Of a stretch of 64,000 nt of DNA, positions 14,167 through 35,277 are shown piece by piece. The notes beneath the pieces were generated by a model. That model made no database searches. It was not told the origin of the DNA and was given only the letters and a program-made list of their open reading frames with translations. Both the position numbers and the translations under genes were made by a program. Each line of letters opens with the position of its first letter. Within the stretch, counting starts at the first letter, position 1. The DNA comes from Gammaproteobacteria bacterium (lineage in GTDB: Bacteria > Pseudomonadota > Gammaproteobacteria > Steroidobacterales > Rariloculaceae): contig JAJEGN010000005.1 in assembly GCA_022819855.1 (NCBI GenBank), positions 347,061-411,060 of the forward strand, read 5' to 3'.

Positions 14167-14172
14167 CCGGGG

Positions 14173-16631: not shown

Positions 16632-17900
16632 TCACTCCACGACGGCTTGCATCACGGCATCTTCGAATTCGGGGCGCATGCCGCGAACCGGCGTCTGGAT
16701 CATGAGCACGCCGACGAGGTTTTCCTCGGGATCGACCCAGAAATGCGTGCCATAGGCGCCGCTCCAGCCGAAGCTTCCCTTTGTCAGGTACGTGTCGCGG
16801 GCCACGGGGTCGGTGACGACGCGTACGCTGAGTCCGTAGCCCTCGCCGGAGGGTCGGCCGGGCAGGCTGTCGGGGATATACGCCGAGCCCATGAGTTCCA
16901 CCGACCTCGGGCTCAGGATCCGCACGCCGTCGAGTTCGCCGCCGTTGGCGAGCATCATCGCGAAGCGCCCGTAGTCGCCGGCCGTCGTCATGAGACCGCC
17001 GGCGCCGGAAGAGTAGTTTGGACCCGACATGCTGTCGGGATTCTCGCGAGGCACGAGACCGTCGTCGGTTCGCGAGTATGAGTTCACCAGACGCTCTCGC
17101 TGCGCCGGACTCGGCCAGAAGGTCGCGTCCTCGATGCCGAGCGGCCCGAACACGCGTTCCTCGAGAAATTCCTCGAAGCGTTGGCCGGAGACGACCTCGA
17201 CGATGCGGCTCAGGACGTCGAACCCGGCCAGCGCGCTGTATGCCCAGCGAGCGCCCGGTTGAAACTCGAGCGGAGCGGCGCCGAGTTCGTCGACCCAGGC
17301 GAGCCCGACATCGTGTCGCGTGCTCGACATGTCCCGGCCGACGCTGTTGCCCATGGGGCCGCTCATGACGCCGGAGGTATGCGTCAGCAGGTCGCGCACG
17401 GTAATCGCCCGGTCCGTCGGGACGGTATAGAACTCGGGCGGCGGGCCGCCGAAGCCGCCAAATCCGCCGCCGGGCGCCGCGCCGCCGCTGCGCATGCCGA
17501 CCTCGGCGCCCTCGAACGATGGCAGAAAGCGCGACACGGGATCGCGCAGGCGAACCTGGCCTTCCTCGACGAGAATCATGATCGCGACGCCCGCGACGGG
17601 CTTCGACATCGACGCGATCCGGAAAATCGTGTCGGTGCGCATCGGCGTCTCCGACTCGACGTCCATGACCCCCTGCGCTTCCAGATGGGCGACCTGGCCA
17701 TTGCGCCCCACGAGCGTCACGGCGCCGGTGATGTCGCCCTGCTCGATGTAGCGGTCGACCAGTTCATTGACCCGCTGCAGCCGCTCCGACGACAGGCCGA
17801 CGCTCTCCGGCTGAACGACCTGAGCGGTGGCGACGAACGCAAGACCGACCAGCGCGACAGCGGTGACGCAGCGCAAGAACCAGGATTTCGATGTATTCAT
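16632..17900 (-). CDS. Serine hydrolase (beta-lactamase class C/EstB-like)
   Basis: FRIASMSKP (SxxK), DLLTHTSG, FQPGARWAYS, FGWSGAYGTHFWVDP; signal peptide. Confidence 0.92.
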   Translation of the reverse strand: MNTSKSWFLRCVTAVALVGLAFVATAQVVQPESVGLSSERLQRVNELVDRYIEQGDITGAVTLVGRNGQVAHLEAQGVMDVESETPMRTDTIFRIASMSKPVAGVAIMILVEEGQVRLRDPVSRFLPSFEGAEVGMRSGGAAPGGGFGGFGGPPPEFYTVPTDRAITVRDLLTHTSGVMSGPMGNSVGRDMSSTRHDVGLAWVDELGAAPLEFQPGARWAYSALAGFDVLSRIVEVVSGQRFEEFLEERVFGPLGIEDATFWPSPAQRERLVNSYSRTDDGLVPRENPDSMSGPNYSSGAGGLMTTAGDYGRFAMMLANGGELDGVRILSPRSVELMGSAYIPDSLPGRPSGEGYGLSVRVVTDPVARDTYLTKGSFGWSGAYGTHFWVDPEENLVGVLMIQTPVRGMRPEFEDAVMQAVVE

Positions 17901-18252
17901 GTTCTTTCCCCGGTGTATCCCCAACTCGCCCGAATCGTACAATGGTACCGGGCCATTGACCAACGACGACGGCACGCCGCAAGTATCGATGGCGCACCAG
18001 CCAGAGACCGGCATGATACCGTGCGTCTTTTCGCGCCCGGCGGCGCTTCAAATCGTTCTGCGGGGCAAGCTTCCGCGCCGTCTTGGCCAAGGACGACGGT
18101 AGCCACGCGCGGCAGGCCGCGGGGCGCGGCAACCCAGCTTGGCGTGCAGGTCGCTGACGGCAGAGTGGGGCGACGGTCCGCGACTGTGGAACCGTGCGGA
18201 GTTACGGCTGCGCGCGCAGCGAAACATCAGGCAACGATGCAAGGATTCAGGC

Positions 18253-19047
18253 TTGAAGAGCGGTAATTGGCAGGATCTGGCAACGACGGACTTCGGAGCC
18301 GTCGATGCCGAAACGACCATTGCCCTGTTTCCCGTTTCGGCCATCGAGCAGCACGGGCCGCATCTGCCGCTCTCGACGGACGCCGAGATTGCTGACGGCA
18401 TCGTTCGGGCGGCGCTCGATGGTCTGCCGAGTCCGCCGACGGTGCTCGTGCTGCCCGGCTTCGTCGTCGGCGACAGCGTCGAACACACCAGTTTCCCGGG
18501 CACGCTGAGCATCGACGCATCAACGCTCGCAGCGGCCTGGTTCGACATCGGCCGCAGCGTCACGCGCGCCGGAATCCGCAAGCTCGTGATCTTCAACAGC
18601 CACGGCGGCCAGAAGGCGCTCGTCGATCTCGCGGCCATGCGGCTGCGCGCGGAACTCGCGATGCTCGTCGTTCGCGCCAGTTACTTTTCGTTCGGCATGC
18701 CGGAAGGGCTCTTCGACGAACGCGAGATTCTGCACGGCGTGCACGGCGGCGAGATCGAGACCTCGCTCATGCTGCACTTGCGTCCGGACCTCGTTCGCCG
18801 CGATGCCCTGGACAGGTTCAGCGGCTTGCCCGAAGCGCTCGCCGACCGCAACGTCGTGCTCGGCGCCGAGAAGCCCGCCGGATTCGCCTGGATGAGCGAG
18901 GACCTGCACCCGGAGGGCGTCTGCGGCGACGCCGCGAGCGCCGATGCCGAGCGCGGGGGCCGCTATCTGGATTACCTTGGCGAACGGCTTCGCACCCTGC
19001 TCGTCGAACTTGCCGAGACGCCGCTCGGGATCATCGACAAGGGCTGA
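18253..19047 (+). CDS. Creatininase-family amidohydrolase (possible formamidopyrimidine deformylase)
   Basis: AIEQHGPHLPLSTD, SVEH, FNSHGG, HGGEIETS; TTG start at 18253. Confidence 0.9.
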   Translation: MKSGNWQDLATTDFGAVDAETTIALFPVSAIEQHGPHLPLSTDAEIADGIVRAALDGLPSPPTVLVLPGFVVGDSVEHTSFPGTLSIDASTLAAAWFDIGRSVTRAGIRKLVIFNSHGGQKALVDLAAMRLRAELAMLVVRASYFSFGMPEGLFDEREILHGVHGGEIETSLMLHLRPDLVRRDALDRFSGLPEALADRNVVLGAEKPAGFAWMSEDLHPEGVCGDAASADAERGGRYLDYLGERLRTLLVELAETPLGIIDKG

Positions 19048-19197
19048 GCGCCGCGGACAGCCGCAATCGTGCGCGCTGGCGGCCCTCGCCTTGGCCACGG
19101 CGCGAACCGCTCGCGCGGCCGCCCAAGGCCCGCCGAGTGGTAACATTGCGCCCCCACGACGATGAGGAGCGGGAGACCGGTGGCCCGCCGCGACGCA

Positions 19198-20811
19198 ATG
19201 AGCCGAATCGCTCTTTACGACACGACGCTCCGCGACGGGTGCCAGTCCGAGGATGTCGCATTCACCCTCGAGGACAAGCTGCGCATCGCCGAGGAACTCG
19301 ACGCCAGCGGAATCAGCTACATCGAAGGCGGCTGGCCGGGCTCGAACCCGCGCGACCAGGAGTTTTTCCCGGCCGTAAGGGAACTCAATCTCCGTCATGC
19401 GAAGGTGGCGGCTTTCGGTTCGACGCGCAGGGCCGGCACGGCGGTCGAGGACGACCTCAACCTCCGCCAGTTGCTGAAGGCCAAAACGCCCGTCGTCACG
19501 ATCGTCGGCAAGACCTGGGACCTGCACGTGCGCGACGACCTGCGCATCTCCCGGGATGAGAACCTCGACATCATCGGCGAGTCGATCGCCTACCTGAAAC
19601 GGCGCGTCGACGAAGTGTTCTTCGATGCCGAACACTTTTTCGACGGCTACAAGGCCGATGCCGAATACACGCTCAAGTGCCTGAAGGCGGCCGCGGACGC
19701 CGGAGCCGATGTGCTGGTGCTCTGCGACACGCGCGGCGGCAGCATGCCGCACGAGATTCGCGAGGCCGTGCGCGCGGCCGCGGCGCTCGGCGCCACCGCG
19801 CTCGGCATCCATTGCCACAACGACTGTGAACTGGCCGTCGCAAACTCGCTCGCCGCCGTCGAGGCCGGCGCGACGCAGGTGCAAGGCACGATCAACGGTT
19901 TCGGCGAACGCTGCGGCAACGCGAATCTCTGCTCGGTGATCCCGAACCTGCAGCTCAAGCTCGGTCGCGAGTGCGTCAGTCCCGAGCAGTTGAAGCTGTT
20001 GCCGCATGTCTCAGGCGTCGTCTACGAACTTGCCAACATCGAGCCCTTCAAGCGTCAGGCCTACGTCGGCGCGAGCGCCTTCGCGCACAAGGGCGGTCTG
20101 CATGTGGCCGCCGTGCAGAAGAACAGCGAGACCTACGAACACATCGACCCGCAAGTCATCGGCAACACGCAACGCGTGCTCGTCTCGGACCTGTCCGGGC
20201 GCAGCAACGTCATCTACAAGGCCAGGCAGTTCGGGTTCGACATCGATCCCGCCAACCCGGCCGTCAAGACCGTGCTCGACAAGGTCAAGCAACTGGAGAA
20301 TGCCGGCTACCAGTACGAAGGCGCCGATGCCTCGTTCGAGCTGCTGATCCAGGAAGCGCTCGGCGGCGCGCGCGTGCACCATTTCCGCCTGATCAGCTTC
20401 CGGGTCAGCGACGAGAAGCTCAGGGACGGCGAGCCGGCCCTGTCGGAGGCGACCGTCCGGATCGAAGGGCCCGACGGCAGGATCGAGCACACGGTCGCGC
20501 AGGGCAACGGCCCGCTCAATTCGCTCGACCGCGCGCTGCGCAAGGCCCTGACGCCGTTTTACCCCGAACTCAACGAACTGGAGTTGCTCGACTACAAGGT
20601 CAGGGTGCTCGGCGGCAGCGCGGGCACGCAGGCGACCGTCCGCGTGCTCATCGAGTCGGGCGACTCCCGCAGCAAGTGGGGCACGGTCGGCGTCTCGACG
20701 AACGTTCTCGAGGCCAGTTGGCAGGCGCTCGTTGACAGCATCGAGTACAAGCTCTACAAGGACAGGAAGGAACAACGCGACGCAGGCGAACGGGTGTCCG
20801 CGGACGGTTAG
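19198..20811 (+). CDS. cimA: Citramalate synthase (LeuA/CimA family)
   Basis: [72 protein letters not shown]. Confidence 0.9.
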
Positions 20812-20882
20812 CCGCCTGCCGCACGGGACCATCCCTGGTGTTAGGATTCAACAGGCGCAAGCTCAATACGGGAAGATCAACG

Positions 20883-21275
20883 ATGAAAACATGGGCAACG
20901 GGATTGGTCGCACTCGGCGCGTTCGTGCTGCTCGGTACCGAACTGCAGGCACATCATGCCGTGGCAAGCGTGTACGACCTCAATACGGAAGTGGTCCTGG
21001 AGGGCCGGCTCACGAAACTGAACTACCGGAATCCGCACGCAAACCTTCTGCTCGAGGTGCCGAACGAGGATGGCAGCACGACGGAGTGGACGCTGACCAC
21101 GGCGTCGACTCAAGTGCTGGGCCGGGCGGGGGTCACGAGGGACTCGATGCAACCGGGGGAGATTTTCAGGATCACCATACTACCGGCGCGAAACGGCAAC
21201 CCCGCAGGTTTCATCCGTACGCTCGAACTCGGCGACCGCGCGGTCGAACTGTTCTTCCGCGACCGCCCGAACTAG
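20883..21275 (+). CDS. Stand-alone DUF6152 protein
   Basis: Signal peptide LQA|HHA, YRNPH, PARNG motif; 130 aa. Confidence 0.8.
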   Translation: MKTWATGLVALGAFVLLGTELQAHHAVASVYDLNTEVVLEGRLTKLNYRNPHANLLLEVPNEDGSTTEWTLTTASTQVLGRAGVTRDSMQPGEIFRITILPARNGNPAGFIRTLELGDRAVELFFRDRPN

Positions 21276-21351
21276 CAGTCCGGGAACAATTCAGCGCCGC
21301 GGCGCAGGGCTTCTGCCACGCGCCGCGGGCGCTTACATCAGGGGGATCTCG

Positions 21352-22281
21352 ATGTCGTTGCGACGCTCAATCATCACATCTGCGCTCGCCATCGCCGTTG
21401 CGACGAGCTTCGCGCTGCCGGCCGCCGCGCAGTTCTTCGGCCAGCCGCCGCCGTACACGCCCGAGCCCGGCGCCAGGGACCTCAAGGCGACCCTCTTCAA
21501 TTGGGCCTGGCACATGGGGATGCTCAGGGGCCAGGCGGAGCCCGAACTCGTTGCCACGCTCGAGTACCAGGCCGAGGGCACCGTACAGATCGACGGGCAG
21601 GCCTGCGCGCTGACCGGCTATCGCATCAGCGCCAACTACCGGATTCCGGGCTACCGCACGCAGATCGACTGCACGCTGCCGGACGGCCAGTCGCACTCCA
21701 ACATAGAAACGATCAGCGGGACCTATTCCTGGGACGAGGACATTCCCGGCGCCGAACTCGTCCCGGGCGAGGGCGCCGCCACCCCGCGGCCTGCCGCGCT
21801 CGAGGAGCGGCTGATCCGCCTGTGGGCGAGTCCCCACGGCGCGCCCAAGGCCGCCATCGCGGCCGCGGCGGGCGTGCCGGCATCGCAGTCGTTCGCCTGG
21901 AACCCGGCGGAGTTGCTCGACGAGCGAGCCGCCGCGGGCGTGGAACCGATGACGACGCTCGAGTGGCAGGGCGACCGGGCCGTGCTCACGTTTCCGCTTC
22001 CCGGCATCGCCGGAGCCACGGCGACCGCCACGCTTGACGAGACCTTCCTGCCGGAAAGCGTCGTCGTGACACACGCAGATAACACGACGGAGTTCCTCTA
22101 CGGGGATTTCCAGGATTTCAACAACCCGCTGCACCGTATCGAAGCCCTGTACGCCGGCACGATCGTCGAGCGCCAGAACGGCGAGGTCGTGCGCGAACTG
22201 CAGACGACGCTGACCGAGGTGGGCCAGGTGTACGTGGTCGTGCCCGTTCCGGACAGCGTCCGGGCGGCGGCCGGGAACTGA
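21352..22281 (+). CDS. Secreted hypothetical protein
   Basis: Signal peptide (AAA|QFF); GGGGA SD; no family recognised. Confidence 0.7.
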   Translation: MSLRRSIITSALAIAVATSFALPAAAQFFGQPPPYTPEPGARDLKATLFNWAWHMGMLRGQAEPELVATLEYQAEGTVQIDGQACALTGYRISANYRIPGYRTQIDCTLPDGQSHSNIETISGTYSWDEDIPGAELVPGEGAATPRPAALEERLIRLWASPHGAPKAAIAAAAGVPASQSFAWNPAELLDERAAAGVEPMTTLEWQGDRAVLTFPLPGIAGATATATLDETFLPESVVVTHADNTTEFLYGDFQDFNNPLHRIEALYAGTIVERQNGEVVRELQTTLTEVGQVYVVVPVPDSVRAAAGN

Positions 22282-22414
22282 CGGAGTTCGGACCACGACG
22301 AAAATCGGGCGAATCGGAACGCTGTGTCCGGCGACGCCTGTCACGAACTGACGGAGTTCGGATCATGAAGACTACGAAACGAATCGGGACACAGAGTCCG
22401 GCAACGGCTGCGAT
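22275..22414 (+). repeat. Degenerate 70-bp tandem duplication
   Basis: An exact 18-mer GAACTGACGGAGTTCGGA occurs at 22275 and 22345, and the remaining 52 nt align without gaps. Confidence 0.8.
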
Positions 22415-23315
22415 GGGCTCTGGACCGGAATTCTCTACGGCATCGCGCCGGAGGCCTGGAGCAGCGGTCCCGGTGATCGCGGCGATGTTCCTCTGTGTCG
22501 TCGCGACTTCGGCGCAGGCGCAGTTCGGCGGCGGCGGACCCGACCCGGACGCGGCCCTCGCGGAGACGCCAAGGCTCGCCAACGGCAAGCCCGACCTGTC
22601 GGGTTCCTGGCGAGGTGTCGGCGGCGGCCCCCAACGCGTCGCGGGCGGCATGTTCCGGCGCTGCAGCCCGTTCCAGGACAACTGCATGGAGTGGACGAAT
22701 CAGAGCGCCGATTTCGTGTTCATGGCCTCGTCGCGGCTCGACATGAATCAACCGCTGTACAAGCCCGAGCACTGGGACCGGGTTCAGGAACTGGATCAGT
22801 GGACGAATCTCTACGATCCGGTCATGACCTGCCTGCCTCTCGGACTGCCGCGCCACGGACCGCCCGCGCGCATATTCCACACCGACAGCGACATCACGAT
22901 GCTGTACCGGGGCGGCCTCGACGGCGGCGGGGGCTACGCCGAGTTTCGCATGATCGGGTTCGACAGGACCGAGCACGAGCCCGAAGACATCTACGCCTAC
23001 AGGTACTACGGCGTTCCGGTCGCAAGCTGGGACGGCGACACGCTCGTGCTGGAATCGATCGGGTTCACCGACGAGACCTGGTTCGGGCGCGGCGGCTTCT
23101 TCCATTCCGACCAGATGCGGCTCATCGAGCGGTTCACGAGGACAGGCAACGAGCTGCTCTACGAAGTGACCGTGGACGACCCGGAGGTGCTCGTGGAGCC
23201 CTGGGTCATGCATCCGCGGATTCTGCAGACAACGAACAACCCGACGATCATCGCCGAGCGCGGTTCGTGCACGGAGACCGAGCTGGATCAGGTCACGACG
23301 CAGATCAGGCACTAG
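22365..23315 (+). CDS. Secreted protein homologous to the C-terminal domain of the 961 and 2864 proteins
   Basis: TPRLANGKPDLSGSW, DPVMTCLPLG, GVPVASWDGDTLVLES, LIERFTR. Confidence 0.72.
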   Translation: MKTTKRIGTQSPATAAMGSGPEFSTASRRRPGAAVPVIAAMFLCVVATSAQAQFGGGGPDPDAALAETPRLANGKPDLSGSWRGVGGGPQRVAGGMFRRCSPFQDNCMEWTNQSADFVFMASSRLDMNQPLYKPEHWDRVQELDQWTNLYDPVMTCLPLGLPRHGPPARIFHTDSDITMLYRGGLDGGGGYAEFRMIGFDRTEHEPEDIYAYRYYGVPVASWDGDTLVLESIGFTDETWFGRGGFFHSDQMRLIERFTRTGNELLYEVTVDDPEVLVEPWVMHPRILQTTNNPTIIAERGSCTETELDQVTTQIRH

Positions 23316-23431
23316 CCCGCGACCGAACCGCGCGCCGTACCGAGGGCGGTGCGGCCGTGCGATCAAGTCGGGCGAGAATACCGGCGGCCTGTGCTCATTG
23401 ATCCAGCGGAACTCGCTGGAGGAGTTGAGCC

Positions 23432-24427
23432 TTGTCCAAGCAGTCGCCAGCCGAGCCAGGAAACGCGACACGGCAGGGAATCGTGCAGGCCGACGCCGTC
23501 TGGCGCGCGTTGCTCGAGGCCGCTCGGCAGACACGGGGGGAAGACGGTCCCGCTCCACGCGCGACGCCGGAAAAGCGTGCCGCGACGGCGGACCGTGGGC
23601 CGCTCGGCGACGCCGACGAAGGGTTGCTCGTCAGGGACTCGGGCGGCCGTTGGGTGCGTGGACCCGAGGTTCCCGCCGAGACGGCAGCTCTGCTCGATCT
23701 TTATCTGCCCGTGTGCAACGCTCGGGAAGGATCGCCGCTGACCGTCGGCCATCTCGGCCAAAGCCTCGACGGCTACATCGCCACCGACTCGGGCGATTCG
23801 ACCTACGTGACGGGTCCGGCCAACATACTGCACCTGCACCGGATGCGGGCGCTGTCCGACGCCATCGTCGTCGGTGCGGGCACGATCGCCTGCGACGATC
23901 CGCAGCTCACGACGCGGCTGGCCGAAGGGCCGAACCCGCTTCGAGTCGTGCTCGATCCCTCGCGTCGGCTCCATTCACGCCACGGTGTCTTTTCCGACGG
24001 CGCGGCGGAGACGATCGTGGTCTGCGACGAGCGCCGGACAGCCAGGGGAAAGGAATCGCACGGTCTCGCCGAGGTCGTCGGCGTGCCGGCCGACGACGGC
24101 CGGCTGGACCTTGAAGCCGCGCTCGGGCGGCTCGCCGAGCGCGGTCTGGCCGCGGTGTTCGTCGAGGGCGGCGGCGCGACGGTATCGCGGTTTCTCGAGG
24201 CCGGCCTGCTCGACCGCCTGCAGATCGCGATCGCCCCACTCGTCACCGGGTCCGGAACGGCCGGGCTCCGCGTGCCGGGGCGCGACCGGATCGCCGAATG
24301 CCTGAGGCCGCCGCATCGGGTATTCTCGATGGGTGAAGACGTACTCTTCGACTGTGACTTGCATGCCGGCGGCTCGCCGGTGCGCGGCGACGGACGCGAG
24401 CAGACGCGGCTCAGGCGCATCATCTGA
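23432..24427 (+). CDS. RibD C-terminal-type reductase with N-terminal extension
   Basis: GQSLDGYIAT, LRALSDAIVVGAGT-like (MRALSDAIVVGAGTI), DDPQLTTR, PLRVVLD, VFVEGGG; no deaminase domain. Confidence 0.88.
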   Translation: MSKQSPAEPGNATRQGIVQADAVWRALLEAARQTRGEDGPAPRATPEKRAATADRGPLGDADEGLLVRDSGGRWVRGPEVPAETAALLDLYLPVCNAREGSPLTVGHLGQSLDGYIATDSGDSTYVTGPANILHLHRMRALSDAIVVGAGTIACDDPQLTTRLAEGPNPLRVVLDPSRRLHSRHGVFSDGAAETIVVCDERRTARGKESHGLAEVVGVPADDGRLDLEAALGRLAERGLAAVFVEGGGATVSRFLEAGLLDRLQIAIAPLVTGSGTAGLRVPGRDRIAECLRPPHRVFSMGEDVLFDCDLHAGGSPVRGDGREQTRLRRII

Positions 24428-24437
24428 ACGGCTCCCA

Positions 24438-25844
24438 ATGATCTCGTACGAAGCAGGCCGAAAGCTGACTACCGTGATTGGCGCGGTTCTTCTCACCGTA
24501 GTCTTTGCGCCGAACAGTACGTTTTCGCAACCGGGCGTCATGACCGCGGCCGACAGGCAGCGGCAGCTCGTCGAAACGATTCAGGAGGAAGAATCCGGGA
24601 ATGGGCCGATGGCGGAGGGGCTGATCGGTCCATTGACGGCCCTGGCGATGCTGTTTCACGAGGAGGGCGATCAACTTCAGGCGGCGGCGACCATCGAGCG
24701 CGTACTGCACCTGATGCGTGTCAACTACGGCCTCCATACCCTGGAGCAGGCACCCCTGATCCAACAACTGATCGAGCAGGAAGAAGCGTGGGGGCGTGCA
24801 GCGGTCGCGTGGGAACTCGAGCAGGAGCTCCTGACTCTGGCAAGACGGCATCCCGACGACCTGCGAACGGTCCCCATTTTTCGGGAAGCGGCCGGGAGAC
24901 GAAGTGATTGGCTCGATCGATATCTGGGCGGCGAGTCACCACCGCAGATCGAGCTTGGTTGTTACTACGACTGGCCGGGAATCAGACCTGGAGGGGTCGC
25001 TGGCCCGGGGCAGGAGATGTTCAGGTGTAATTCCGGGAGCCGTGGCGATGTTCAGATCGCCCTCACCGCGGATGCACAGAAGCATTTTGCCGAAGCTGTT
25101 GCCGTCCTGCTCCGCAACGACGCGACTCAGGGAGAAGCTCTGCGCGAGCTGGACATGGAACTCGTCCGGAGCGCGCATCGCAACTCCGGGGACCCCTTTC
25201 TTCGCCGAGTCGGCGTCATGTTCGAGCCGTGGCGAAGTTGGGCCGTTGCGTTGCTCGGAATCGCCAACTGGGATCCCGCGGATACCGACAGACATGAGCG
25301 GTTGGCGCAGAACGCCACGGGGACGCAGATCAAGTACCCGACGCAATATGGCGTCGGCAGATCAGCCCTGCAGCGCATTTACGCTCGGGAAGTCGCGACC
25401 GGCTCATGGCAAACCCAAGGCGACGCGCTGCTTCAGATCGCCGACTGGGACCTGATACACGAACGTTACGCGATCGCGCTTTCGGAGTACGAGCTGTTGT
25501 ACGAAAAGCTGACAGAACTGGGCGCCGCGAAATCCTCGATCGACGGGATCTTCTCGCCCGCGACGCCGGCTGTACTTCCCTCGTTCATGCCCAACGCGCT
25601 GATATCGCATGAAACGGAGGAATCCGGTGGATATGTCGATGTGGCCTTCGAGATCACCCGGTTCGGAACGAGCAGGAGAATCGAGATCCTGGATTCGTCA
25701 CCCGGCGTCAGCGAACAGGCTCAGGACCGGCTAGTCGATCTGATCCGGAGCAGTCAGTTTCGCCCGAGAACCACGGACGGCCGGTTTCGACGCAGCACCC
25801 GCGTCGTCACGCGTTACTATCCGGCTGACGTGAACTGGCCATGA
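24438..25844 (+). CDS. Secreted/periplasmic helical protein with C-terminal TonB-C-like domain
   Basis: N-terminal signal; TPR-like helices; C-terminal GYVDVAFEITRFG...RIEIL...QFRPR. Confidence 0.6.
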   Translation: MISYEAGRKLTTVIGAVLLTVVFAPNSTFSQPGVMTAADRQRQLVETIQEEESGNGPMAEGLIGPLTALAMLFHEEGDQLQAAATIERVLHLMRVNYGLHTLEQAPLIQQLIEQEEAWGRAAVAWELEQELLTLARRHPDDLRTVPIFREAAGRRSDWLDRYLGGESPPQIELGCYYDWPGIRPGGVAGPGQEMFRCNSGSRGDVQIALTADAQKHFAEAVAVLLRNDATQGEALRELDMELVRSAHRNSGDPFLRRVGVMFEPWRSWAVALLGIANWDPADTDRHERLAQNATGTQIKYPTQYGVGRSALQRIYAREVATGSWQTQGDALLQIADWDLIHERYAIALSEYELLYEKLTELGAAKSSIDGIFSPATPAVLPSFMPNALISHETEESGGYVDVAFEITRFGTSRRIEILDSSPGVSEQAQDRLVDLIRSSQFRPRTTDGRFRRSTRVVTRYYPADVNWP

Positions 25845-25925
25845 CTGCGATACGCGTCCAGGGATCGGCCGCACCTCGAATCAACAAAACCCTGAGATCG
25901 GGACCGTAAAGCCGGTGCGTTCCGC

Positions 25926-26798
25926 TCAGAGGGCAGCCGGCCAGGCCAGCAGATCCTCGTGGCCGACGAGGAACTCGGTGCCTGGGTTATCCAGCGCTCG
26001 GCTGCGTCTGTTGTGCCACAGCTCGAGCGCGCCGTGGTCGGCTCCCTCCAGCGTTGCGGCGGCCCTTGACCAGCCGTCGAGCAGCATTGCCCGGAGCTCT
26101 TGGTCGTCCGAACCAAGACGCCAGTCGCTTGGTTCGCGAACGACCTGGTAGCCGCACTCGGCCAAGGTTTTCGCTGCGGTGTCCGGCGCGGTGGGGCCGA
26201 GTGCCGGCCCGAAGCCCTTGTCGGTGCGCTGGTGGCGGTTGACAAGCATGCGGACCTGCGCGTCGCCTGCATCCGCGGGTTGAATGTGCATCCGGCCGTC
26301 ATAGGTCAGCGCGAACAGGACGGTGGCCGTTGAGTCGCGGCAGCGAGCGGCGACGCGGCGCAACCATGACTCGGACACGAGATCGAGCAAGGCCGAGCCT
26401 GTGACGAGCGCCGATTCGGGCCAGGCGAGTTCCGCAAGATCCGCGGCGAGGTTCATCGTGACGAGGCGCACGCGGCTTTCGAAGGACTTTCCGGCCAGGG
26501 CGAAGCCGTTCTCCGTCTCGGAGTATGCAGCGCCCAGGCTCTCGGCCCAGGCTCGGGTCAGGTTGCCGGCGGCGGCGAGCAGCCGGGGATCGTCGTCGAC
26601 GAGCTGCCAGTGCTGGAGGCCGCCGAGCCGCGGGGCGAGATAGCGAAAGTTCGCGCCCGTGCCGGCGCCGAGATCGACGGCCGCCAGCGCCTCGTGAGGA
26701 ACGAGCCGTTCGCGCAGCGAATCCACGAGCGAGGCGGCCCGCGACCTGGCATCGACGGGCTCCCGTGCAGCCAACCATTTCGGCGTGAAGCTGCTCAT
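25926..26798 (-). CDS. Class I SAM-dependent methyltransferase
   Basis: VDLGAGTGAN motif I, LVTGSALLDLVS. Confidence 0.85.
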   Translation of the reverse strand: MSSFTPKWLAAREPVDARSRAASLVDSLRERLVPHEALAAVDLGAGTGANFRYLAPRLGGLQHWQLVDDDPRLLAAAGNLTRAWAESLGAAYSETENGFALAGKSFESRVRLVTMNLAADLAELAWPESALVTGSALLDLVSESWLRRVAARCRDSTATVLFALTYDGRMHIQPADAGDAQVRMLVNRHQRTDKGFGPALGPTAPDTAAKTLAECGYQVVREPSDWRLGSDDQELRAMLLDGWSRAAATLEGADHGALELWHNRRSRALDNPGTEFLVGHEDLLAWPAAL

Positions 26799-26883
26799 GT
26801 TCGAGTGAGCCTCACGAAAGCGGTAGCCCTTGACCGCACGTCAACCGGTTCCCTTGCGGTCGGCGTATTGGGCGCGAAGCCGC

Positions 26884-27936
26884 TCACGTCGCGCTAACTC
26901 TCGCGAGCGCTGCGGCGAATCGCTCGACCGTGCGGTCCCAACCCGGCAGGGCTGTGCGTGCCGCCAGTGCGGCTTCCGTCAGCCCGGCGAGCGTGCCGGG
27001 CTCGTCCATGACGCTCGCGAGCGCCCGCACCAGCACCGCGCTGTCGTTCGGCGGAACGAGGATGCCCGCTCCGGGCGTGACTGTGTCGGGTATCGCACCC
27101 GCCTCGGTCGCGATGATCGGGATGCCGCGGGCCAGGGCTTCGGTCAGGACCATGCCGTAGCCCTCGAGCGCGGATGCGAGCACGAACAGGTCGCAGTTCG
27201 CGTATTGCTCCCCGAGATCGCCGGGGGCGAGTTCGCCGGCCAGGACAATCCGCTCGCCGAGGCCAAGCCGCTCGATCTGCACACGGAGCTTCGCGGTCAG
27301 CGCCGGATTCCTGGTCAGGCTGCCGACGCACACGAGCCGCCAGTCCCTGTCGGCCAACTGCCCAAGCGCGTCAAAGAGGACCGCGTGGCCCTTGCGGGCC
27401 GTCAGCGACCCGACGCATAGCAGGCGCAGCGTCTCGCTGCTCGACGGGCGCCGCGGCGGTGCGCGGTCGACCCCGGGTTCCACGACGGTGATCCGGTCCG
27501 CGCCGACGCCGTAGTCGGCCAGGGCGCACCGCGTCCACCGGCTCGTGACGATGACGTGATGCACGGCCGCGAGCGACTCCGTTTCCGCACGTTTCAGGGC
27601 GGTGGCTGCCGATTCGTCGAGGCCGGTTTCGAGCGCGAGCGGGTGGTGCACGAGTGCGCACAGGCTCAGACGCCGTGCCGCCGCGCGCAGGATCGAGGCA
27701 CTGCCGCCGAGCGCCAGGCCGTCGATGACGACGAGCCGGCCGCTCGGGATCGCCGCGAGCACGTGGCCGGCCTCGCGCAAGGCGCTCCGGGTCGGCGTCG
27801 GAAAGCTCGTGTCGAGCGGATGGACGGTCGTCGTCCAGCCCCGTGTTTTTAGTCCCTCGACGACGCGGCGGTCATAGATGTAGCCGCCGGTCAGCGTCTC
27901 GATATCGCCCGGGACGATGAAGTCGACGGAGGTCAC
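26884..27936 (-). CDS. Glycosyltransferase family 4 (GT-B)
   Basis: TGGYIYDRRV, LCVGSLTARKG, LEGYGMVLTEALARGIP; GTG start at 27936. Confidence 0.92.
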   Translation of the reverse strand: MTSVDFIVPGDIETLTGGYIYDRRVVEGLKTRGWTTTVHPLDTSFPTPTRSALREAGHVLAAIPSGRLVVIDGLALGGSASILRAAARRLSLCALVHHPLALETGLDESAATALKRAETESLAAVHHVIVTSRWTRCALADYGVGADRITVVEPGVDRAPPRRPSSSETLRLLCVGSLTARKGHAVLFDALGQLADRDWRLVCVGSLTRNPALTAKLRVQIERLGLGERIVLAGELAPGDLGEQYANCDLFVLASALEGYGMVLTEALARGIPIIATEAGAIPDTVTPGAGILVPPNDSAVLVRALASVMDEPGTLAGLTEAALAARTALPGWDRTVERFAAALARVSAT

Positions 27937-27953
27937 GCGATCGCGGTCGGCCG

Positions 27954-28358
27954 CTAGACCTGAATCGCGCTTTCGTAGGCAGCCCACGCAACGTGCGATT
28001 CGTGCAGCGTCACCCGCATCGAAGCGATCTGCCCGGCGTTCTCCCCGAGCGCGCCGCTTGCGATGCGGTCGCGGAACCTCGCGAAGATCACGGCAGCGAG
28101 GAACTCCGTCGTCGTGTTTTGGCCTTCGAACGCTTCCTCGTCGTCGAGATTGCGAAAATTGAGTTCGGCGAGAATCTCCTTGAGGGTCTCGCTCGCGAGC
28201 CCGATATCAACGACGATGCCGTCCGGGTCGAGTTCGGGGCGCCGGAACTCGACATCGACCACGTAGGTCGCGCCGTGAAGTTTCTGCGCCGGGCCGAACA
28301 CCTTGCCTTCGAAGCTGTGGGCGATCATGAAGTGATCGCGGACCGAGACGCTGTACAT
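27954..28358 (-). CDS. QueD/PTPS-family T-fold protein (COG0720, PTPS-IV-like variant)
   Basis: AHSF...[29 protein letters not shown]. Confidence 0.88.
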
Positions 28359-28367
28359 GGCGCTACC

Positions 28368-29351
28368 TCACCCGTAGACGATGCGATGGCAGAGCGCGCC
28401 GCCGGGTTTCGCGGACAAGCGCTCCAGTACCCGGGGCAGATCGTCGAAGCTGTCCTCGCCCGTGATCAACGCGTCGAGCGTCGGATCGTCCAGCAGCTCG
28501 AAGACCAGATCCATCTGCCGCTTGCCGGACCAGCGGCCGCGTTGCGCGGGCGCGATCGCTCCGACCTGCGACGACTTGAGCGTCAGCCGCCGGCTGTGGA
28601 AACGTTCGCCGAGCATGAGGGTGGCGGGGCGATCGCCGTACCAACTCAATTCGACGATCGTTGCCTCGAAGCCCGCAATGTCGAGCGCCGTCGAGAGACC
28701 TTTCGGATTACCGCTCGCGTGGACGACGAGATCCGCACCCGGTTGCGCGTTCGCCGGAGATCGAAACTCCACCCCGAGACTCGCGGCGACCGTCGCCCTG
28801 GCCGGATCGGTGTCGACGAGTTGGACGCGGCAGCCGCAGATGTGTGCGGCGAGCCAGGCGACGAGGCAGCCGACCGTCCCTGCGCCGATCACGCAGATTC
28901 GGTCGCCGATCCTGGGCGTCGCGTCCCAGAGTCCGTTGACGGCTGTTTGCAGGTTGGCTGCAAGAACGGCGCGCCCCGGAGGCAGTCCCTCGGGCAGTAC
29001 GTGAACTGCGTCGGCCGGCACAACATAACGCGTCTGATGAGGGTAGAGACAGAACACGCTACGCCCGACGAGCGCTTCGGGACCCTCGGCCACGGTTCCG
29101 ACGTTCGCGTAGCCGTACTTGACCGGTGCGGGAAAATCGCCCTCCTGGAATGGCGCGCGCATGCGGGCGTATTCTCCGCGGGGCACACGGCCGTTGAAAA
29201 CCAATGCCTCGGTACCGCGGCTGATTCCGCTGTGGAGCGTGTCGACGGTGACATCGCCGGGCTTCGGGTCGGGGAGGACCTCCCCGCGAATCTCGCCTTT
29301 TCCTGGCGCCGTGACCCAGAACGCACGCGCGTCGTCGCAGGTCTTGGGCAT
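28368..29351 (-). CDS. MDR-family (Zn-binding) dehydrogenase-like protein
   Basis: SGISRGTE, PVKYGY, FCLYPHQ, VIGAGTVG Rossmann motif, ELSWYG. Confidence 0.88.
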   Translation of the reverse strand: MPKTCDDARAFWVTAPGKGEIRGEVLPDPKPGDVTVDTLHSGISRGTEALVFNGRVPRGEYARMRAPFQEGDFPAPVKYGYANVGTVAEGPEALVGRSVFCLYPHQTRYVVPADAVHVLPEGLPPGRAVLAANLQTAVNGLWDATPRIGDRICVIGAGTVGCLVAWLAAHICGCRVQLVDTDPARATVAASLGVEFRSPANAQPGADLVVHASGNPKGLSTALDIAGFEATIVELSWYGDRPATLMLGERFHSRRLTLKSSQVGAIAPAQRGRWSGKRQMDLVFELLDDPTLDALITGEDSFDDLPRVLERLSAKPGGALCHRIVYG

Positions 29352-29452
29352 ACGGAATCATCGGCTGGCGGCGGTTGCGGCCATACTTGCAGGACGATGT
29401 TTGACATGCAAGCCTGCCGGGATGCGTAGCGGTCATCAGCCGTCTTCCGCGC

Positions 29453-29530
29453 GGCGGTCTTCTGCCCCATCAGGCCTTGCGAGGCGGTCTTCCGCCCAAT
29501 CAGGCCTTGCGAGGCGGTCTTCCGCCCCAT
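29453..29530 (+). repeat. 30-bp tandem repeat (2.6 copies) in a divergent intergenic region
   Basis: GGCGGTCTTC(T/C)GCCC(C/A)ATCAGGCCTTGCGA at 29453 and 29483, partial copy at 29513. Confidence 0.9.
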
Positions 29531-29562
29531 GTGGCGCGGTTCCGAATGCGAGCTGACAGGCC

Positions 29563-30306
29563 ATGAACGCATGGACGAGAGCGCTCGGCCGCGCAACCCT
29601 GGCCGCGCCCTCGGCGAGTGTCGTGCTCCAGTTCGCCATTCTCGCCGCTGTCTCGATTCTCGCCGGAGCGCGTCTTGAACTCGGGGCCGGCTATCCCGTC
29701 AAGGCACTTGTCGGATTCGCGTTCATTGGCGCGATCGTGATCGTGCAGGCACGCAGGCGCCTGGCCGCAGCGGTCTTCGGAGCGGCCAATCAGATCACTC
29801 TCGGCCGTGCGGCCCTGACGGCACTTCTAATCGGTTTGTTCGGGGAACCCGCAGCGCCCGTTCTTGCCTGGACCGCGCTGGCTGTCGCGATCGCCGTATC
29901 GATTCTCGACGGCGTGGACGGGACGGTCGCCCGCCGACGCGGCGAGGAGTCGGAGTTTGGAGCGCGGTTCGACATGGAGATCGACGCCCTGCTGATCCTG
30001 GTCCTCGCCGTGCTGGCTTTGCAATTCGGCAAGGCCGGTACGTGGGTCCTCGCCGCCGGACTGCTGCGGTACGCATTTGTCGCCGCGGGCGTCGTCGTGC
30101 CGTGGCTCGCTGCGCCGCTGCCGCCGCGCCGGCGACGGCAAGTCGTGTGCGTCGTTCAGATCGTGTCGCTCATCGTCTGTCTCGCACCGGTCATCCCGAC
30201 ACCGTGGAGCGCCATCGCTGCGGCGCTCGGCATCGGCGCACTGACCTGGTCGTTTGCGGTCGATGTGCTGTGGCTGGGTCACAATCGCCGCAGGAGCACG
30301 CAGTGA
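29563..30306 (+). CDS. CDP-alcohol phosphatidyltransferase family protein
   Basis: ANQITLGR, LDGVDGTVARRRGEESEFGARFDMEID (DGxxAR...GxxxD) motif; TM helices. Confidence 0.92.
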   Translation: MNAWTRALGRATLAAPSASVVLQFAILAAVSILAGARLELGAGYPVKALVGFAFIGAIVIVQARRRLAAAVFGAANQITLGRAALTALLIGLFGEPAAPVLAWTALAVAIAVSILDGVDGTVARRRGEESEFGARFDMEIDALLILVLAVLALQFGKAGTWVLAAGLLRYAFVAAGVVVPWLAAPLPPRRRRQVVCVVQIVSLIVCLAPVIPTPWSAIAAALGIGALTWSFAVDVLWLGHNRRRSTQ

Positions 30307-30336
30307 AAGTCCTTACGCCTGGTATCTGTCCGACCG

Positions 30337-30382
30337 GGAGCCTGCGCCGCAGGAAGTCGCGATTTCCCGCGGCGCAGGCTCC
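30337..30382. repeat. 46-bp near-perfect palindrome (REP-like element or terminator)
   Basis: GGAGCCTGCGCCGC / GCGGCGCAGGCTCC perfect 14-bp arms with further internal pairing; related copies at about 5 kb and 36 kb. Confidence 0.8.
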
Positions 30383-30424
30383 TGGGGCAGGATGCCTGTC
30401 GAAGCGTTTGCCGGAGAGCGATCC

Positions 30425-31900
30425 ATGCAAGTTCTGACAGTTCTCGTCTACACGTTCGTCATGATGGTCGGGATCGGCGTGCTCGCGGCCGTGATCCTCT
30501 TCGTCGTCGACATATCCCAGACCCACGACGCGATCCGCCGCAACTTTCCGGTCCTGGGCCGCTTCCGCGGCGTCTTCGAGCACTTGGGCGAGTTCTTCAG
30601 ACAGTATTTCTTCGCGCTCGACCGCGACGAGCTGCCGTTCAACCGCGCCGAGCGCAACTGGGTCTACCGCGCGTCGAAGCAGGGCACCAACACGATCGCT
30701 TTCGGGTCGACGCGCGAACTGCGCCCCGTCGGGACGGTGCTCTACGTCAACAGTGCATGGCCGCTGCTCGAGCAGGATGTCGCCGAGCCTGCAGCGGTGA
30801 CATTCGGACAGGACTGTGAGCAGCCCTATACGACAAACGCGCTCATCAATATTTCCGCGATGAGCTACGGGTCGATCTCGCGGCCGGCCGTTCGGGCGCT
30901 GTCCCGCGGCGCGAAGAGCGCCGGCATCTGGCTCAACACCGGCGAAGGAGGCCTGGCGCCGCATCACCTCGAAGGCGGCTGCGACATCGTGTTCCAGATC
31001 GGTACGGCGAACTACGGGGTTCGCGATACGGAGGGCCGCCTGTCAGACGAGAAACTCGCGGAAGTCGCCGCCCACGAGCAGGTCAGGATGTTCGAACTCA
31101 AGCTCAGTCAGGGCGCCAAGCCCGGCAAGGGCGGCATCCTCCCGGCCGTCAAGGTCACGAATGAAATCGCATCGATCCGCGGCATTCCCGTCCACCAGGC
31201 TTCGATCAGCCCGAACCGGCATCCGGACATCGACAGCGCGGCCGACCTGCTCGACGTCATCGGCCGGATACGCGACGTCACCGGCAAACCCGTCGGCTTC
31301 AAGGCCGTAATCGGAGATTTCGCCTGGCTCGATGAACTCTGCGAGGAGATCCACAAACGCGGTGTCGCGAGCGCTCCGGACTTCATTACCGTCGACGGCG
31401 GCGACGGCGGCAGCGGCGCCGCCCCGATGCCCCTCATGGACAATGTCGGCATGGTCGTTCGCGAAAGCCTGCCGCTGCTCGTCGACCAGCTCATCTCGAG
31501 GGGGCTCCGCGAGCGGATCAGGGTGATCACGAGCGGCAAGCTCATCGTCCCGTCGGAGGCGGCCTGGGCCTACTGCGCCGGCGCCGATTTCGTCACTTCG
31601 GCGCGCGGCTTCATGTTCGCGCTCGGCTGCATTCAGGCCATGCAGTGCAACAGAAACACCTGCCCCACGGGCGTCGCGACCCACAACCGCAGACTGCAAC
31701 GCGGCCTCGATCCCGCCGACAAGTCAGAACGCGTAGCGCGCTACGCCCGGACGATCTCCAGGGAGATCGCCATGATCGCCCACTCCTGCGGAGTCAGCGA
31801 GCCCCGCCAACTCGAACGCCGCCACTGCCGCATCGTCACCGAAACGGGCCGCTCCGTCCCCCTGGACGAAATCTGCCCGCCAGCGGTGGCCCCAGGCTAG
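30425..31900 (+). CDS. FMN-binding glutamate synthase family protein (single domain)
   Basis: [55 protein letters not shown] (3Fe-4S). Confidence 0.92.
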
Positions 31901-33714: not shown

Positions 33715-35277
33715 ATGAGTTCAAACACCAGTGCCGGAAACGGCGCAGCGAACGACGTCCATGTCAGAACCGGGGCTGACTACCTCAAGGCGCTCGACGA
33801 TGGCCGCCGGGTTTTCGTCAACGGTCAGCAGATCGAGAACGTCGCAACGCACCCGCTGACGCGGGACTACGCTAACACCGTCGCTTCCTGGTACGACGCG
33901 CATCACGATCCGGAGTACCGGGACATCATGACGTTCGTGGACGAGGACGGCGTGCGCCGCGCGAAGACATGGCTTCTGCACACCAGCAAGGAAGGACTCG
34001 ACTCCAGGCGCATATACCACGACACCGTTTGCAGGATGTTCGGCCGCTCGTTCTTCGGGCGAATGCCGGACGTCAACAACGCCATTTTTCTGACTTACAT
34101 CGATGACCCTGCGCCGTGGGAAGAAAACACGCGCGGCTACGATGCGACCGGGTTTGCAGACAACATTCGCAACTTCTGGGCGAAGATGGTCGACGAGGAC
34201 ATCAACCTGGCGCCGGCGGTGATCGATCCCCCGGTCGATCGTTCACGACCCGAGGCGGAGGCGGAATCGCCCAACTGCCGCGTCGTCGAATACCGCGACG
34301 ACGGCATCGTGATCGATGGCGTCAAGGCGGTGGCCACCGGGACCATATTCGCCGACTGGCTCATGGTGGGCGTGTTCTGGCGTCCCGGCATGCCGGACGA
34401 CCAGGTCATGTATCTCGTGATGCCGGTGAACACGAAGGGCGTCACGCTGCTGTCACGCGAGTGCCTGTCGCGCCCGGACGTGTCCGAGGAAGAGCACCCG
34501 CTGATCGGTCAGGGCGACGAGCTCGACAACTCGATCGTCTTCGACAAGGTATTCGTGCCGCGCAAGTACATCTTTCACCTGGGTAATCCGGACCATGCGA
34601 TGTACTATCCGCAGCGTCTGTTCGATTGGCTGCACTGGATCGATCTGATCCGGTTCGGGGTCAAGACGGAGCTGATGGCGGGCCTGGCCCTGCTGGTCGG
34701 CGACGGTTCCGGGCTGCTCAAGATTCCCGCCACCGCAAGCCGCATTGCGGACGTCATCCGCTTCCGCGAGACCATTCGCGCCTTCCGTGTCGCCGCGGAG
34801 GCCACCGGGTTCATGTCGCCCGGTGGCATGTACAAGCCCAACAACATTCAGCTCGATTTCGGGCGCGCGTTCTACCAGGAGCATTCGAAGGACATCATCA
34901 ACGAGCTGCTCGACCTCAGCGGCCGCAGCGCGATCATCCAGCCGGCGGCCAGCGACTTCGGCGAGTTCGGCGATCTGCTCGACACGATGTTGCGCGGCGC
35001 CTGGGACGACGGCAAGCAACGCCTCAAGGTGTTTCGTGTCATCCGCGACATGTTTCTCAGTGACTGGGGCGACCGCGGCCGGATGTTCGACCAGTTCAAC
35101 GGAACGCCGCTCAACACGATCCGCATTCTGACCATGCACCGTACGGAGTTTCACCCCAACGGGCCGATGACCGCGTTCGCCCGCGAAGTCTGCGGTATTC
35201 CCCTGGTCGAAGGGCAGGGCACGGTGAAAGAACACGTGGCCGCATACGTCAAGGCGCAGGACGTCAAGACTGACTGA
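33715..35277 (+). CDS. Two-component flavin-dependent monooxygenase, TftD/TcpA/HadA-like (halophenol/nitrophenol) clade
   Basis: RTGADYLKALDDGR, NVATHPLTRDYA, TFVDEDGVRR, GVKAVATG, QGDELD, YPQRLFDW, FNGTP; these motifs match TftD as I recall it. Confidence 0.85.
   Translation: MSSNTSAGNGAANDVHVRTGADYLKALDDGRRVFVNGQQIENVATHPLTRDYANTVASWYDAHHDPEYRDIMTFVDEDGVRRAKTWLLHTSKEGLDSRRIYHDTVCRMFGRSFFGRMPDVNNAIFLTYIDDPAPWEENTRGYDATGFADNIRNFWAKMVDEDINLAPAVIDPPVDRSRPEAEAESPNCRVVEYRDDGIVIDGVKAVATGTIFADWLMVGVFWRPGMPDDQVMYLVMPVNTKGVTLLSRECLSRPDVSEEEHPLIGQGDELDNSIVFDKVFVPRKYIFHLGNPDHAMYYPQRLFDWLHWIDLIRFGVKTELMAGLALLVGDGSGLLKIPATASRIADVIRFRETIRAFRVAAEATGFMSPGGMYKPNNIQLDFGRAFYQEHSKDIINELLDLSGRSAIIQPAASDFGEFGDLLDTMLRGAWDDGKQRLKVFRVIRDMFLSDWGDRGRMFDQFNGTPLNTIRILTMHRTEFHPNGPMTAFAREVCGIPLVEGQGTVKEHVAAYVKAQDVKTD

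Follow-up and report, generated by a model that had tools for sequence, protein, structure and literature searches.

Which product is made by a group of genes that joins a QueD-like protein to a dehydrogenase, a glycosyltransferase, a methyltransferase, a reductase and a CDP-alcohol transferase? The question is raised by a stretch of 64,000 nucleotides, here called the window (positions 347061-411060 of contig C5), in a gammaproteobacterial assembly of 3.73 Mb with 97.7% completeness and 65% G+C, for which Candidatus Rariloculus is the nearest relative with a name. A sequence-only reading of this DNA had listed six such genes as an orphan cluster around a protein of the PTPS-IV family. Our results confirm that the window holds a real and intact, trimmed copy of the conserved PTPS-IV (SCO6650-type) biosynthetic cluster, and it is likely that this cluster encodes a dedicated pathway to a GTP-derived, glycosylated and methylated metabolite.

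A conserved cluster around PTPS-IV

All six genes were found and all are intact; the open reading frames (ORFs), the Pfam and NCBIfam matches and gene calls made independently on near-identical contigs give one and the same gene set. Four of them form a minus-strand operon (29351-25926) in the order given by the sequence-only reading, namely the medium-chain dehydrogenase/reductase (MDR) gene, the gene for the QueD-like PTPS-IV protein, the GT4 glycosyltransferase gene and the S-adenosylmethionine (SAM) methyltransferase gene, separated by gaps of only 9, 17, and 85 nt. The gene for the CDP-alcohol phosphotransferase (CDP-OH transferase) is divergent from this operon, and the intergenic region between them presumably carries the promoters of both. 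The placement of the CDP-OH and RibD_C reductase genes and the 1.5-kb distance reported for the latter also held, but a 468-aa gene in that spacer had been omitted.

The conservation of this arrangement carries the main finding. A PTPS-IV profile search returned at least 591 species representatives, and the best 80 loci, drawn from Alpha-, Beta-, and Gammaproteobacteria, Acidobacteriota, Actinomycetota, and Myxococcota, were retained together with 10 kb on either side. The window proteins were searched against these 80 loci, 53 of which have full flanks of ±10 kb, and further recurrent partners were found by de novo clustering of the ORFs in the 80 loci. Within 10 kb of PTPS-IV, the dehydrogenase and the GT4 gene were each present in 52 of the 53 full loci (98%), the methyltransferase in 51 (96%), the RibD_C reductase in 46 (87%), and the CDP-OH transferase in 41 (77%). 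The core partners thus co-occur in 77-98% of the full loci, and the proposal of the sequence-only reading survives the comparison of gene neighbourhoods. A RibA-like GTP cyclohydrolase II (GCH II) was found in 17 full loci (32%) and a creatininase-family gene in 11 (21%), and these two are accessory members of the cluster.

The order and orientation of the genes are nearly fixed. The CDP-OH gene lies on the opposite strand at -1.5 to -2.0 kb in most loci, diverging from the run of dehydrogenase, PTPS-IV, GT4 and methyltransferase genes; the RibD_C gene faces this run, followed by the GCH II gene in the direction of the run and the creatininase gene against it. The same layout occurs in four phyla, Pseudomonadota, Acidobacteriota, Actinomycetota, and Myxococcota, and chance cannot account for the association of these genes. 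Between phyla, the core proteins share 60-70% identity. The identity of PTPS-IV itself, from the gammaproteobacterium to Streptomyces, is 63-81%, and the median for the dehydrogenase is 61%. Compared with the sister species locus L092, all cluster genes gave ratios of nonsynonymous to synonymous substitution (dN/dS) of 0.10-0.33, indicating purifying selection. Of 401 Pseudomonadota genomes sampled evenly, 22 carried PTPS-IV, in a single copy every time.

Features of the locus, with positions in the window unless a locus is named
Feature	Position	Strand	Evidence
Creatininase-family amidohydrolase, 264 aa	18253-19047	+	PF02633 5.5e-66, full length
Site of lost RibA-like GTP cyclohydrolase II gene, as indicated by synteny	23316-23431		Synteny with sister locus L092
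Deaminase-less RibD_C reductase paralogue, 331 aa	23432-24427	+ (convergent on operon)	PF01872 2.9e-38
Inserted 468-aa gene, no family assignment	24438-25844	+	Sub-threshold TonB_C match alone (Pfam, NCBIfam)
Class I SAM methyltransferase, 290 aa, last operon gene	25926-26798	-	Motif I, AlphaFold2 model and Foldseek
GT4 retaining glycosyltransferase, 350 aa	26884-27936	-	PF00534 2.5e-30
PTPS-IV T-fold protein, 134 aa	27954-28358	-	PF01242 1.7e-26
Zinc-less MDR dehydrogenase, 327 aa, first operon gene	28368-29351	-	Weak ADH_zinc_N; BchC best NCBIfam match (7e-15)
Divergent intergenic region, 211 nt	29352-29562		Between operon and CDP-OH transferase gene
CDP-alcohol phosphotransferase, 247 aa	29563-30306	+ (divergent)	PF01066 1.7e-16
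Membrane-anchored Glu_synthase-type FMN oxidoreductase	30425-31900	+	PF01645 2.3e-80
Example accessory genes of other loci	L044 6611-8245; L034 7538-8245; L050 4746-5495

Outside the core, several partners that are missing from this genome recur beside the CDP-OH gene in other loci. A polytopic protein of the sulfatase family, with an LtaS/OpgB-like architecture and a weak Pfam sulfatase match (7e-7), is encoded directly downstream of it in 33 of the 80 loci, including loci from Actinomycetota and Acidobacteriota. YceI adjoins the CDP-OH gene in 20 loci and an FkbM-type methyltransferase does so in 19. These neighbours fit lipid-linked head-group chemistry. In addition, mdoH or mdoG adjoins the cluster in 4 of the 80 loci and on plasmid pOB3b1 of Methylosinus trichosporium OB3b (L099), which hints that the head group may be passed on to periplasmic glucans in some species. 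The five mdoH/mdoG loci (L066, L056, L069, L082, and L099) come from four lineages.

The PTPS-IV protein

The QueD-like protein of the window matches SCO6650 of Streptomyces coelicolor (PDB 3D7J), with about 63% identity, at 1.5e-50 over residues 1-131 in a phmmer search and at 3.3e-70 in a profile search. It carries FGPAQ at residues 21-25, followed by LHGA. FGPAQ is the signature of PTPS-IV, where it replaces the CxxxHGH, CxxxxxHGH, or ExxHGH motifs (PMC5445326), and together with the SCO6650 match it bears out the family assigned by the sequence-only reading. In a profile alignment to rat PTPS (1B66), Cys42 corresponds to Ala24, His50 to Ala30, and Asp88-His89 to Asn67-Phe68, with the TTE motif kept. 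The window protein is thus without the catalytic Cys of QueD and PTPS, the Asp-His pair, and one zinc-binding His.

Members of this family are named '6-carboxytetrahydropterin synthase', with a queuosine GO term, by RefSeq/PGAP (L099 9001-9405; plasmid matches H1-H21). Because the family lacks the QueD catalytic residues, the queuosine label is a systematic over-annotation. PTPS-IV and its GCH II/FolE2 neighbourhood have been recognised in the literature (PMC5445326, PMC5041015), and the cluster type itself is already described there as an orphan; no report of its product was found in the accessible literature, including that on SCO6650-6655.

Loss of the dedicated cyclohydrolase

The locus of sister species L092, whose PTPS-IV is 82% identical, is collinear with the window and carries at the corresponding site a 333-aa PF00925 gene (13694-14695), between the RibD_C gene and the neighbouring gene. 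By blastn synteny, the window jumps from 23316 to 23417 (about 100 nt) where L092 has 1.45 kb, and tblastn detected no cyclohydrolase remnant in the window or the genome. Since L092 has the gene at the syntenic site, the comparison indicates that the dedicated cyclohydrolase was secondarily lost through a clean 1.45-kb deletion. A neighbourhood with a PF00925 GCH II, which is a feature of PTPS-IV, is accordingly missing in the window and present in L092.

The only PF00925 gene in the genome is ribBA, located beside ribD on contig C8. There is one folE, on contig C4 and unlinked to the cluster, and no folE2. The earlier statement that the window shows no GTP cyclohydrolase therefore holds for the whole 97.7%-complete genome with the exception of the housekeeping ribBA and folE, and the search for a second ribA or GTP cyclohydrolase gene returned nothing beyond these two. 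The deletion of the cyclohydrolase under continued purifying selection on the other genes is a natural experiment, suggesting that the pathway need not own its GTP-opening enzyme. In the cluster-type GCH II of other loci (L092 13694-14695; L090 14240-15343), an N-terminal domain of about 150 aa shows a weak alignment (25% identity) to the RibB portion of RibBA from this genome; the protein resembles a degenerate RibBA and not a plain RibA.

The sequence-only reading had listed no gene of the formamide-hydrolase type, but the window does contain a creatininase-family gene. In 19 of the 80 loci, homologues with a median identity of 57% are located 3.3-8.9 kb from PTPS-IV, and the gene occupies the same syntenic position in the sister species L092 and L093, with a dN/dS of 0.11 against the former. 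It reaches none of the NCBIfam cut-offs (for ArfB, 21.7 bits where 180 are required). Formamidases that act on AFRPP are an established part of the creatininase family, and those of the BrbF type work in riboflavin synthesis (PMC9478397). By its position, the window gene is to be read as a syntenic remnant of the canonical cluster, and it is probably that cluster's formamide (AFRPP) hydrolase.

The reductase and its likely substrate

The RibD_C paralogue has an N-terminal extension of about 100 aa and keeps the catalytic residues of its family, T151, D155, E245, and G247 (GAGTIACD at 148-155 and EGGG at 245-248). These correspond to T79, D83, E180, and G182 of ScRIB7, which are the NADPH-binding and catalytic residues of the RibD_C family (PMC3631187). 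Its nearest solved relatives are the archaeal reductases 6P8C (1.3e-25) and 2AZN, which act on 2,5-diamino-6-ribosylamino-4(3H)-pyrimidinone 5'-phosphate (DAROPP). In bacterial enzymes, a Lys (K152 of E. coli RibD, K151 of B. subtilis RibG) contacts the 2-oxo group of the deaminated AROPP. Thr or Asn takes the place of this Lys in the fungal and archaeal enzymes, whose substrate is the 2-amino compound DAROPP, and the change T35K in yeast RIB7 shifts its preference toward AROPP (PMC3631187).

At this specificity position, the window paralogue has His107 and the housekeeping RibD of the same genome has Lys. Among 55 readable cluster orthologues of the reductase, the residue is Gln in 28, His in 23, and Ser in 3, and it is never Lys. 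With the Lys missing, the catalytic residues intact, and the nearest structures of the archaeal type, the residues support a branch in which the 2-amino-4-oxo ring would be kept, as a 2-amino pyrimidine or pterin intermediate. The 2-amino-4-oxo ring is the moiety that T-fold proteins are built to bind. From the missing Lys it is predicted that the enzyme would prefer DAROPP over AROPP in vitro.

The dehydrogenase, glycosyltransferase, methyltransferase, and CDP-OH transferase

The AlphaFold2 model of the MDR dehydrogenase (pLDDT 92.8) gave threonine, butanediol, sorbitol, xylitol, L-idonate, and galactitol-1-P dehydrogenases as its top Foldseek matches, with TM-scores of 0.73-0.79. The model thus places the enzyme among polyol and secondary-alcohol dehydrogenases, one of which acts on a polyol phosphate. 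A GAGTVG Rossmann motif is present. The zinc ligands Cys (GxCGxD) and His-Glu (GHE) are replaced by SRGTE and KYGY, both invariant in the family, at positions placed by motif inspection on a 75-sequence alignment.

The GT4 protein has the EX7E motif (EGYGMVLTE at 258-266). Among solved structures it comes closest to MshA (7QSG, 4.4e-15), a sucrose-phosphate synthase-like protein, and PimB'. Enzymes of the MshA and PimB type glycosylate inositol phosphate or phosphatidylinositol mannoside. The 290-aa protein encoded downstream has zero Pfam matches, and a sequence search against the PDB returned only noise. It has motif I (VDLGAGTG at residues 41-48), and its AlphaFold2 model (pLDDT 96.2) matches many methyltransferases with a Foldseek probability of 1.00, including 3MGG at 2.7e-12 and phosphoethanolamine and FPP methyltransferases. 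In Vreelandella, orthologues fused to the GT4 protein carry Methyltransf_25. On motif, predicted fold, and fused orthologues, the protein is identified as a class I SAM methyltransferase, as the sequence-only reading had called it.

The CDP-OH signature is complete (D116-x2-DG-x2-AR-x8-G-x3-D-x3-D141) in a polytopic membrane protein with roughly six to eight predicted hydrophobic segments. This protein is the third CDP-OH paralogue of the genome. It scores below every named NCBIfam subfamily cut-off (PgsA, PssA, PIP, AIP, and DIPP synthases and ClsA), and its best score is 30.3 bits for archaetidylinositol-phosphate (AIP) synthase against a cut-off of 180, with 27.3 for PgsA against 109. No cytidylyltransferase is conserved in the cluster neighbourhoods, so the simplest donor would be ordinary CDP-diacylglycerol.

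Proposed pathway

Taken together, these enzymes suggest the following flow. In this genome, the housekeeping RibBA would open GTP to DAROPP, and the pathway would draw on that pool; elsewhere DAROPP would come from the RibA-like enzyme of the cluster, alone or together with an ArfB/BrbF-like formamidase of the creatininase type. The RibD_C paralogue would then convert the ribosyl group into ribityl without prior deamination, keeping the 2-amino-4-oxo ring. The zinc-less MDR enzyme may oxidise a secondary hydroxyl of the side chain, and PTPS-IV, in which the TTE pterin/pyrimidine-binding region is kept, may bind or rearrange the product. With oxidation at C2', the 5-amino group could close the ring, giving a neopterin-like dihydropterin. 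The MshA/PimB-like GT4 enzyme would add a sugar to a hydroxyl of the polyol or polyol phosphate, and the class I methyltransferase would methylate the product; for both, the family is clear and the substrate conjectural. Finally, the CDP-OH transferase would form a phosphodiester, most likely with CDP-diacylglycerol as donor, so that the product would be a membrane lipid whose head group is a GTP-derived glycoside.

We consider this flow as a whole, lipid link included, to be evenly poised between right and wrong. The sequence-only reading had likewise proposed a GTP-derived heterocycle that is reduced, glycosylated, and methylated and perhaps linked to a lipid. Its claims that the genes belong together and serve no housekeeping role stand on the new data, and its chemistry is an interpretation with which the new evidence fits. 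A bolder reading of the end product, which we hold to be less likely than not, is an undescribed class of membrane phospholipid. Its head group would be a GTP-derived 2-amino-4-oxo ribitylaminopyrimidine or neopterin-like pterin that carries a sugar and an O- or N-methyl group, and some lineages would pass it on to periplasmic glucans or other envelope polymers. The neopterin-like pterin would arise by a 'redox Amadori' route, in which a reductase and a dehydrogenase together bypass GTP cyclohydrolase I. If the phospholipid proposal is true, this genome shows the pathway running on the housekeeping RibBA pool alone.

Several observations weigh against the proposed flow. The substrates of all the enzymes are assigned by analogy. 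PTPS-IV may be non-catalytic, and the chemistry of the dehydrogenase may differ from that of its structural neighbours, since their zinc ligands are missing from it. The best solved relative of the CDP-OH transferase, DIPP synthase 4MND (a weak match, 1e-3), takes a soluble CDP-alcohol. A search of the genome found no flippase-like, LtaS-like, or FkbM gene, so that the absence of a flippase-like gene noted earlier for the window extends to the genome. The creatininase gene is conserved even though the cyclohydrolase is gone, which suggests that it is untied to the pathway or does not act on AFRPP. The proteobacterial cluster GCH II enzymes keep the Tyr aligned with Y105 of E. coli RibA, even beside a creatininase gene, and three actinomycete loci have His there; loss of this Tyr marks the formamide-producing GCH II, and the proteobacterial enzymes may or may not release a formylated product.

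Alternative explanations

It is very improbable that the genes serve ordinary metabolism, with PTPS-IV acting as QueD, in a riboflavin branch of the BrbF type, in F420 synthesis, or with the CDP-OH enzyme as a normal phospholipid synthase. Such a role would be consistent with the PGAP name of PTPS-IV and with the presence of QueC and QueE beside the tol-pal genes (C9:55064-56412) in a genome in which PTPS-IV is the only PF01242 member and no canonical QueD (COG0720 with CxxxHGH) was detected. However, PTPS-IV as a substitute for QueD is rejected by its missing catalytic residues and by a distribution that does not track QueC. Within the same family of bacteria, QueC occurs in 17 of 19 genomes and a PF01242 protein in 11 of 19, and in six genomes (G006, G007, G009, G013, G014, and G016) QueC stands without any PF01242 protein. 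From this pattern, the lineage seems to lack 6-carboxytetrahydropterin synthase or to use a non-orthologous one, a puzzle apart from PTPS-IV. The riboflavin role of BrbF-type formamidases also speaks for ordinary metabolism, but a separate complete ribD, with the AROPP-selecting Lys, and ribBA are present on contig C8. Similarly, two other CDP-OH transferases are encoded elsewhere in the genome. An involvement of PTPS-IV in F420 synthesis has been stated with reference to unpublished work (PMC5041015). That link is rejected for this genome and cannot apply here, because TIGR01819 gave no match for CofD in the 97.7%-complete assembly. Moreover, the linkage to GT4 and methyltransferase genes across phyla plays no part in any of these pathways. 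None of the cluster genes is a housekeeping copy, and the ordinary riboflavin, queuosine, or phospholipid role against which the sequence-only reading had set its proposal is not what we found.

Among the alternatives, a soluble end product carries the most weight, although we regard it as rather unlikely. In that case, the product would be a pterin or aminopyrimidine glycoside serving as a cofactor, pigment, or signal, or a phosphodiester-linked solute, and the CDP-OH enzyme would use a soluble partner in place of a lipid. Pterin glycosides with methylated sugars occur in cyanobacteria. The solved relatives of the CDP-OH enzyme are DIPP synthase and choline/ethanolamine phosphotransferases and not PssA, the genome has no flippase or LtaS-like partner, and 12 of the 53 full loci have no adjacent CDP-OH gene, so the four-gene core may give a complete soluble product. 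On the other hand, a cytidylyltransferase that would supply a soluble CDP-alcohol is not conserved in the cluster, the NCBIfam scores for users of CDP-lipids (archaetidylinositol-phosphate synthase and PgsA) at least match that for DIPP synthase, and the recurrent neighbours elsewhere (the sulfatase family, YceI, and MdoH) belong to the membrane or periplasm and handle lipids. In another alternative, the lipid is a mere carrier, from which the phospho-head group would be moved to periplasmic glucans or lipopolysaccharide to decorate an envelope polymer. OpgB and EptA transfer phosphoglycerol and phosphoethanolamine from phospholipid to envelope glycans in this way, and both the sulfatase-family gene downstream of the CDP-OH gene and the mdoH/mdoG loci argue for such a transfer in other species. 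However, homologues of the sulfatase-family partner, MdoH, and MdoG are all missing from this genome, so this variant would not operate here, and the sulfatase match of the partner is weak; we hold it to be improbable. The flow given above, with its lipid link, is the explanation that we prefer.

Relation to known systems

The window agrees with the SCO6650-type neighbourhood in its SCO6650 orthologue, its FGPAQ signature, and the GCH II found in one third of the loci and in the sister species. It differs in the loss of GCH II, in a creatininase gene set apart by 4.4 kb of unrelated genes, and in the 468-aa gene between the methyltransferase and RibD_C genes. Like the DAROPP reductases (MjaRED 2AZN, 6P8C, and ScRIB7), the RibD_C paralogue has the catalytic Thr, Asp, Glu, and Gly in place and lacks the bacterial Lys, but it has His or Gln in place of Asn or Thr, and the N-terminal extension. 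A creatininase-family gene accompanies the paralogue, as in the archaeal and fungal riboflavin branch with ArfB/BrbF (PMC9478397); in contrast to that branch, the paralogue is unlinked to a deaminase or to lumazine or riboflavin synthase, and the genome has a normal bacterial RibD.

The pairing of a full-signature CDP-OH transferase with a GT4 enzyme nearest to MshA and PimB' resembles the logic of PIP synthase with MshA, PimA, and PimB. However, no inositol or inositol-phosphate synthase genes accompany it, and a ribityl or pterin side chain would take the part of the polyol. The proposed steps also share with the GTP cyclohydrolase I/PTPS route a T-fold protein and, by reduction followed by oxidation, a 2'-keto intermediate that would close to a dihydropterin. 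They differ from it in a GCH II-type start, in the use of RibD_C and MDR enzymes, in a T-fold protein without the catalytic residues, and in a folE that is unlinked.

New here are the clean loss of the cyclohydrolase, the analysis of the reductase specificity residue, and the fold placement of the dehydrogenase and methyltransferase. Among orphan pathways that touch cofactor chemistry, the PTPS-IV cluster ranks with the more widespread, and knowing what it makes would give a function to six to ten protein families in a single stroke. The product could reveal a new lipid head group or pterin-type metabolite, possibly made by an alternative route from GTP to pterin.

Neighbouring genes and variant loci

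A riboswitch or RNA leader was rejected because Rfam gave zero matches at the gathering score in the window; there was one chance-level match in 17500-31000. The 468-aa gene matched none of the 80 related loci and is also missing from L092, so it is an insertion in this species only and not a cluster member. It has two paralogues, on contigs C4 and C2, with about 35% identity. Between the creatininase and RibD_C genes lie a citramalate synthase gene (TIGR00977, 761 bits) and a DUF6152 gene set, which are lineage-specific passengers, since none of the 80 loci has them. On the same count of 0 of 80, the citramalate synthase, the DUF6152 set, the 468-aa gene, and the HpaB genes were rejected as cluster members. 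The HpaB-type genes form a back-to-back pair, the second of which (33715-35277, + strand) is missing in L092, indicating a recent gain or loss.

The protein of the Glu_synthase type has a predicted N-terminal hydrophobic segment. Its gene occupies the same position in L092 and L093, and also in L033 and L073 (67% identity), and the other 78 loci are without it. It may be an accessory redox partner of this lineage or a mere co-transfer.

Loci L004-L006 represent near-identical strains with a 180-bp insert (locus positions 10409-10588) between the PTPS-IV and GT4 genes. In the strain variant L004, the dehydrogenase and PTPS-IV part is 93% identical and a patatin gene stands in place of the CDP-OH gene. 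L004 was set aside as evidence, as its sequence upstream of the dehydrogenase gene matches contig C20 and is joined by a 48-bp overlap; the junction is possibly a chimeric assembly, a recent recombination, or a repeat-mediated rearrangement.

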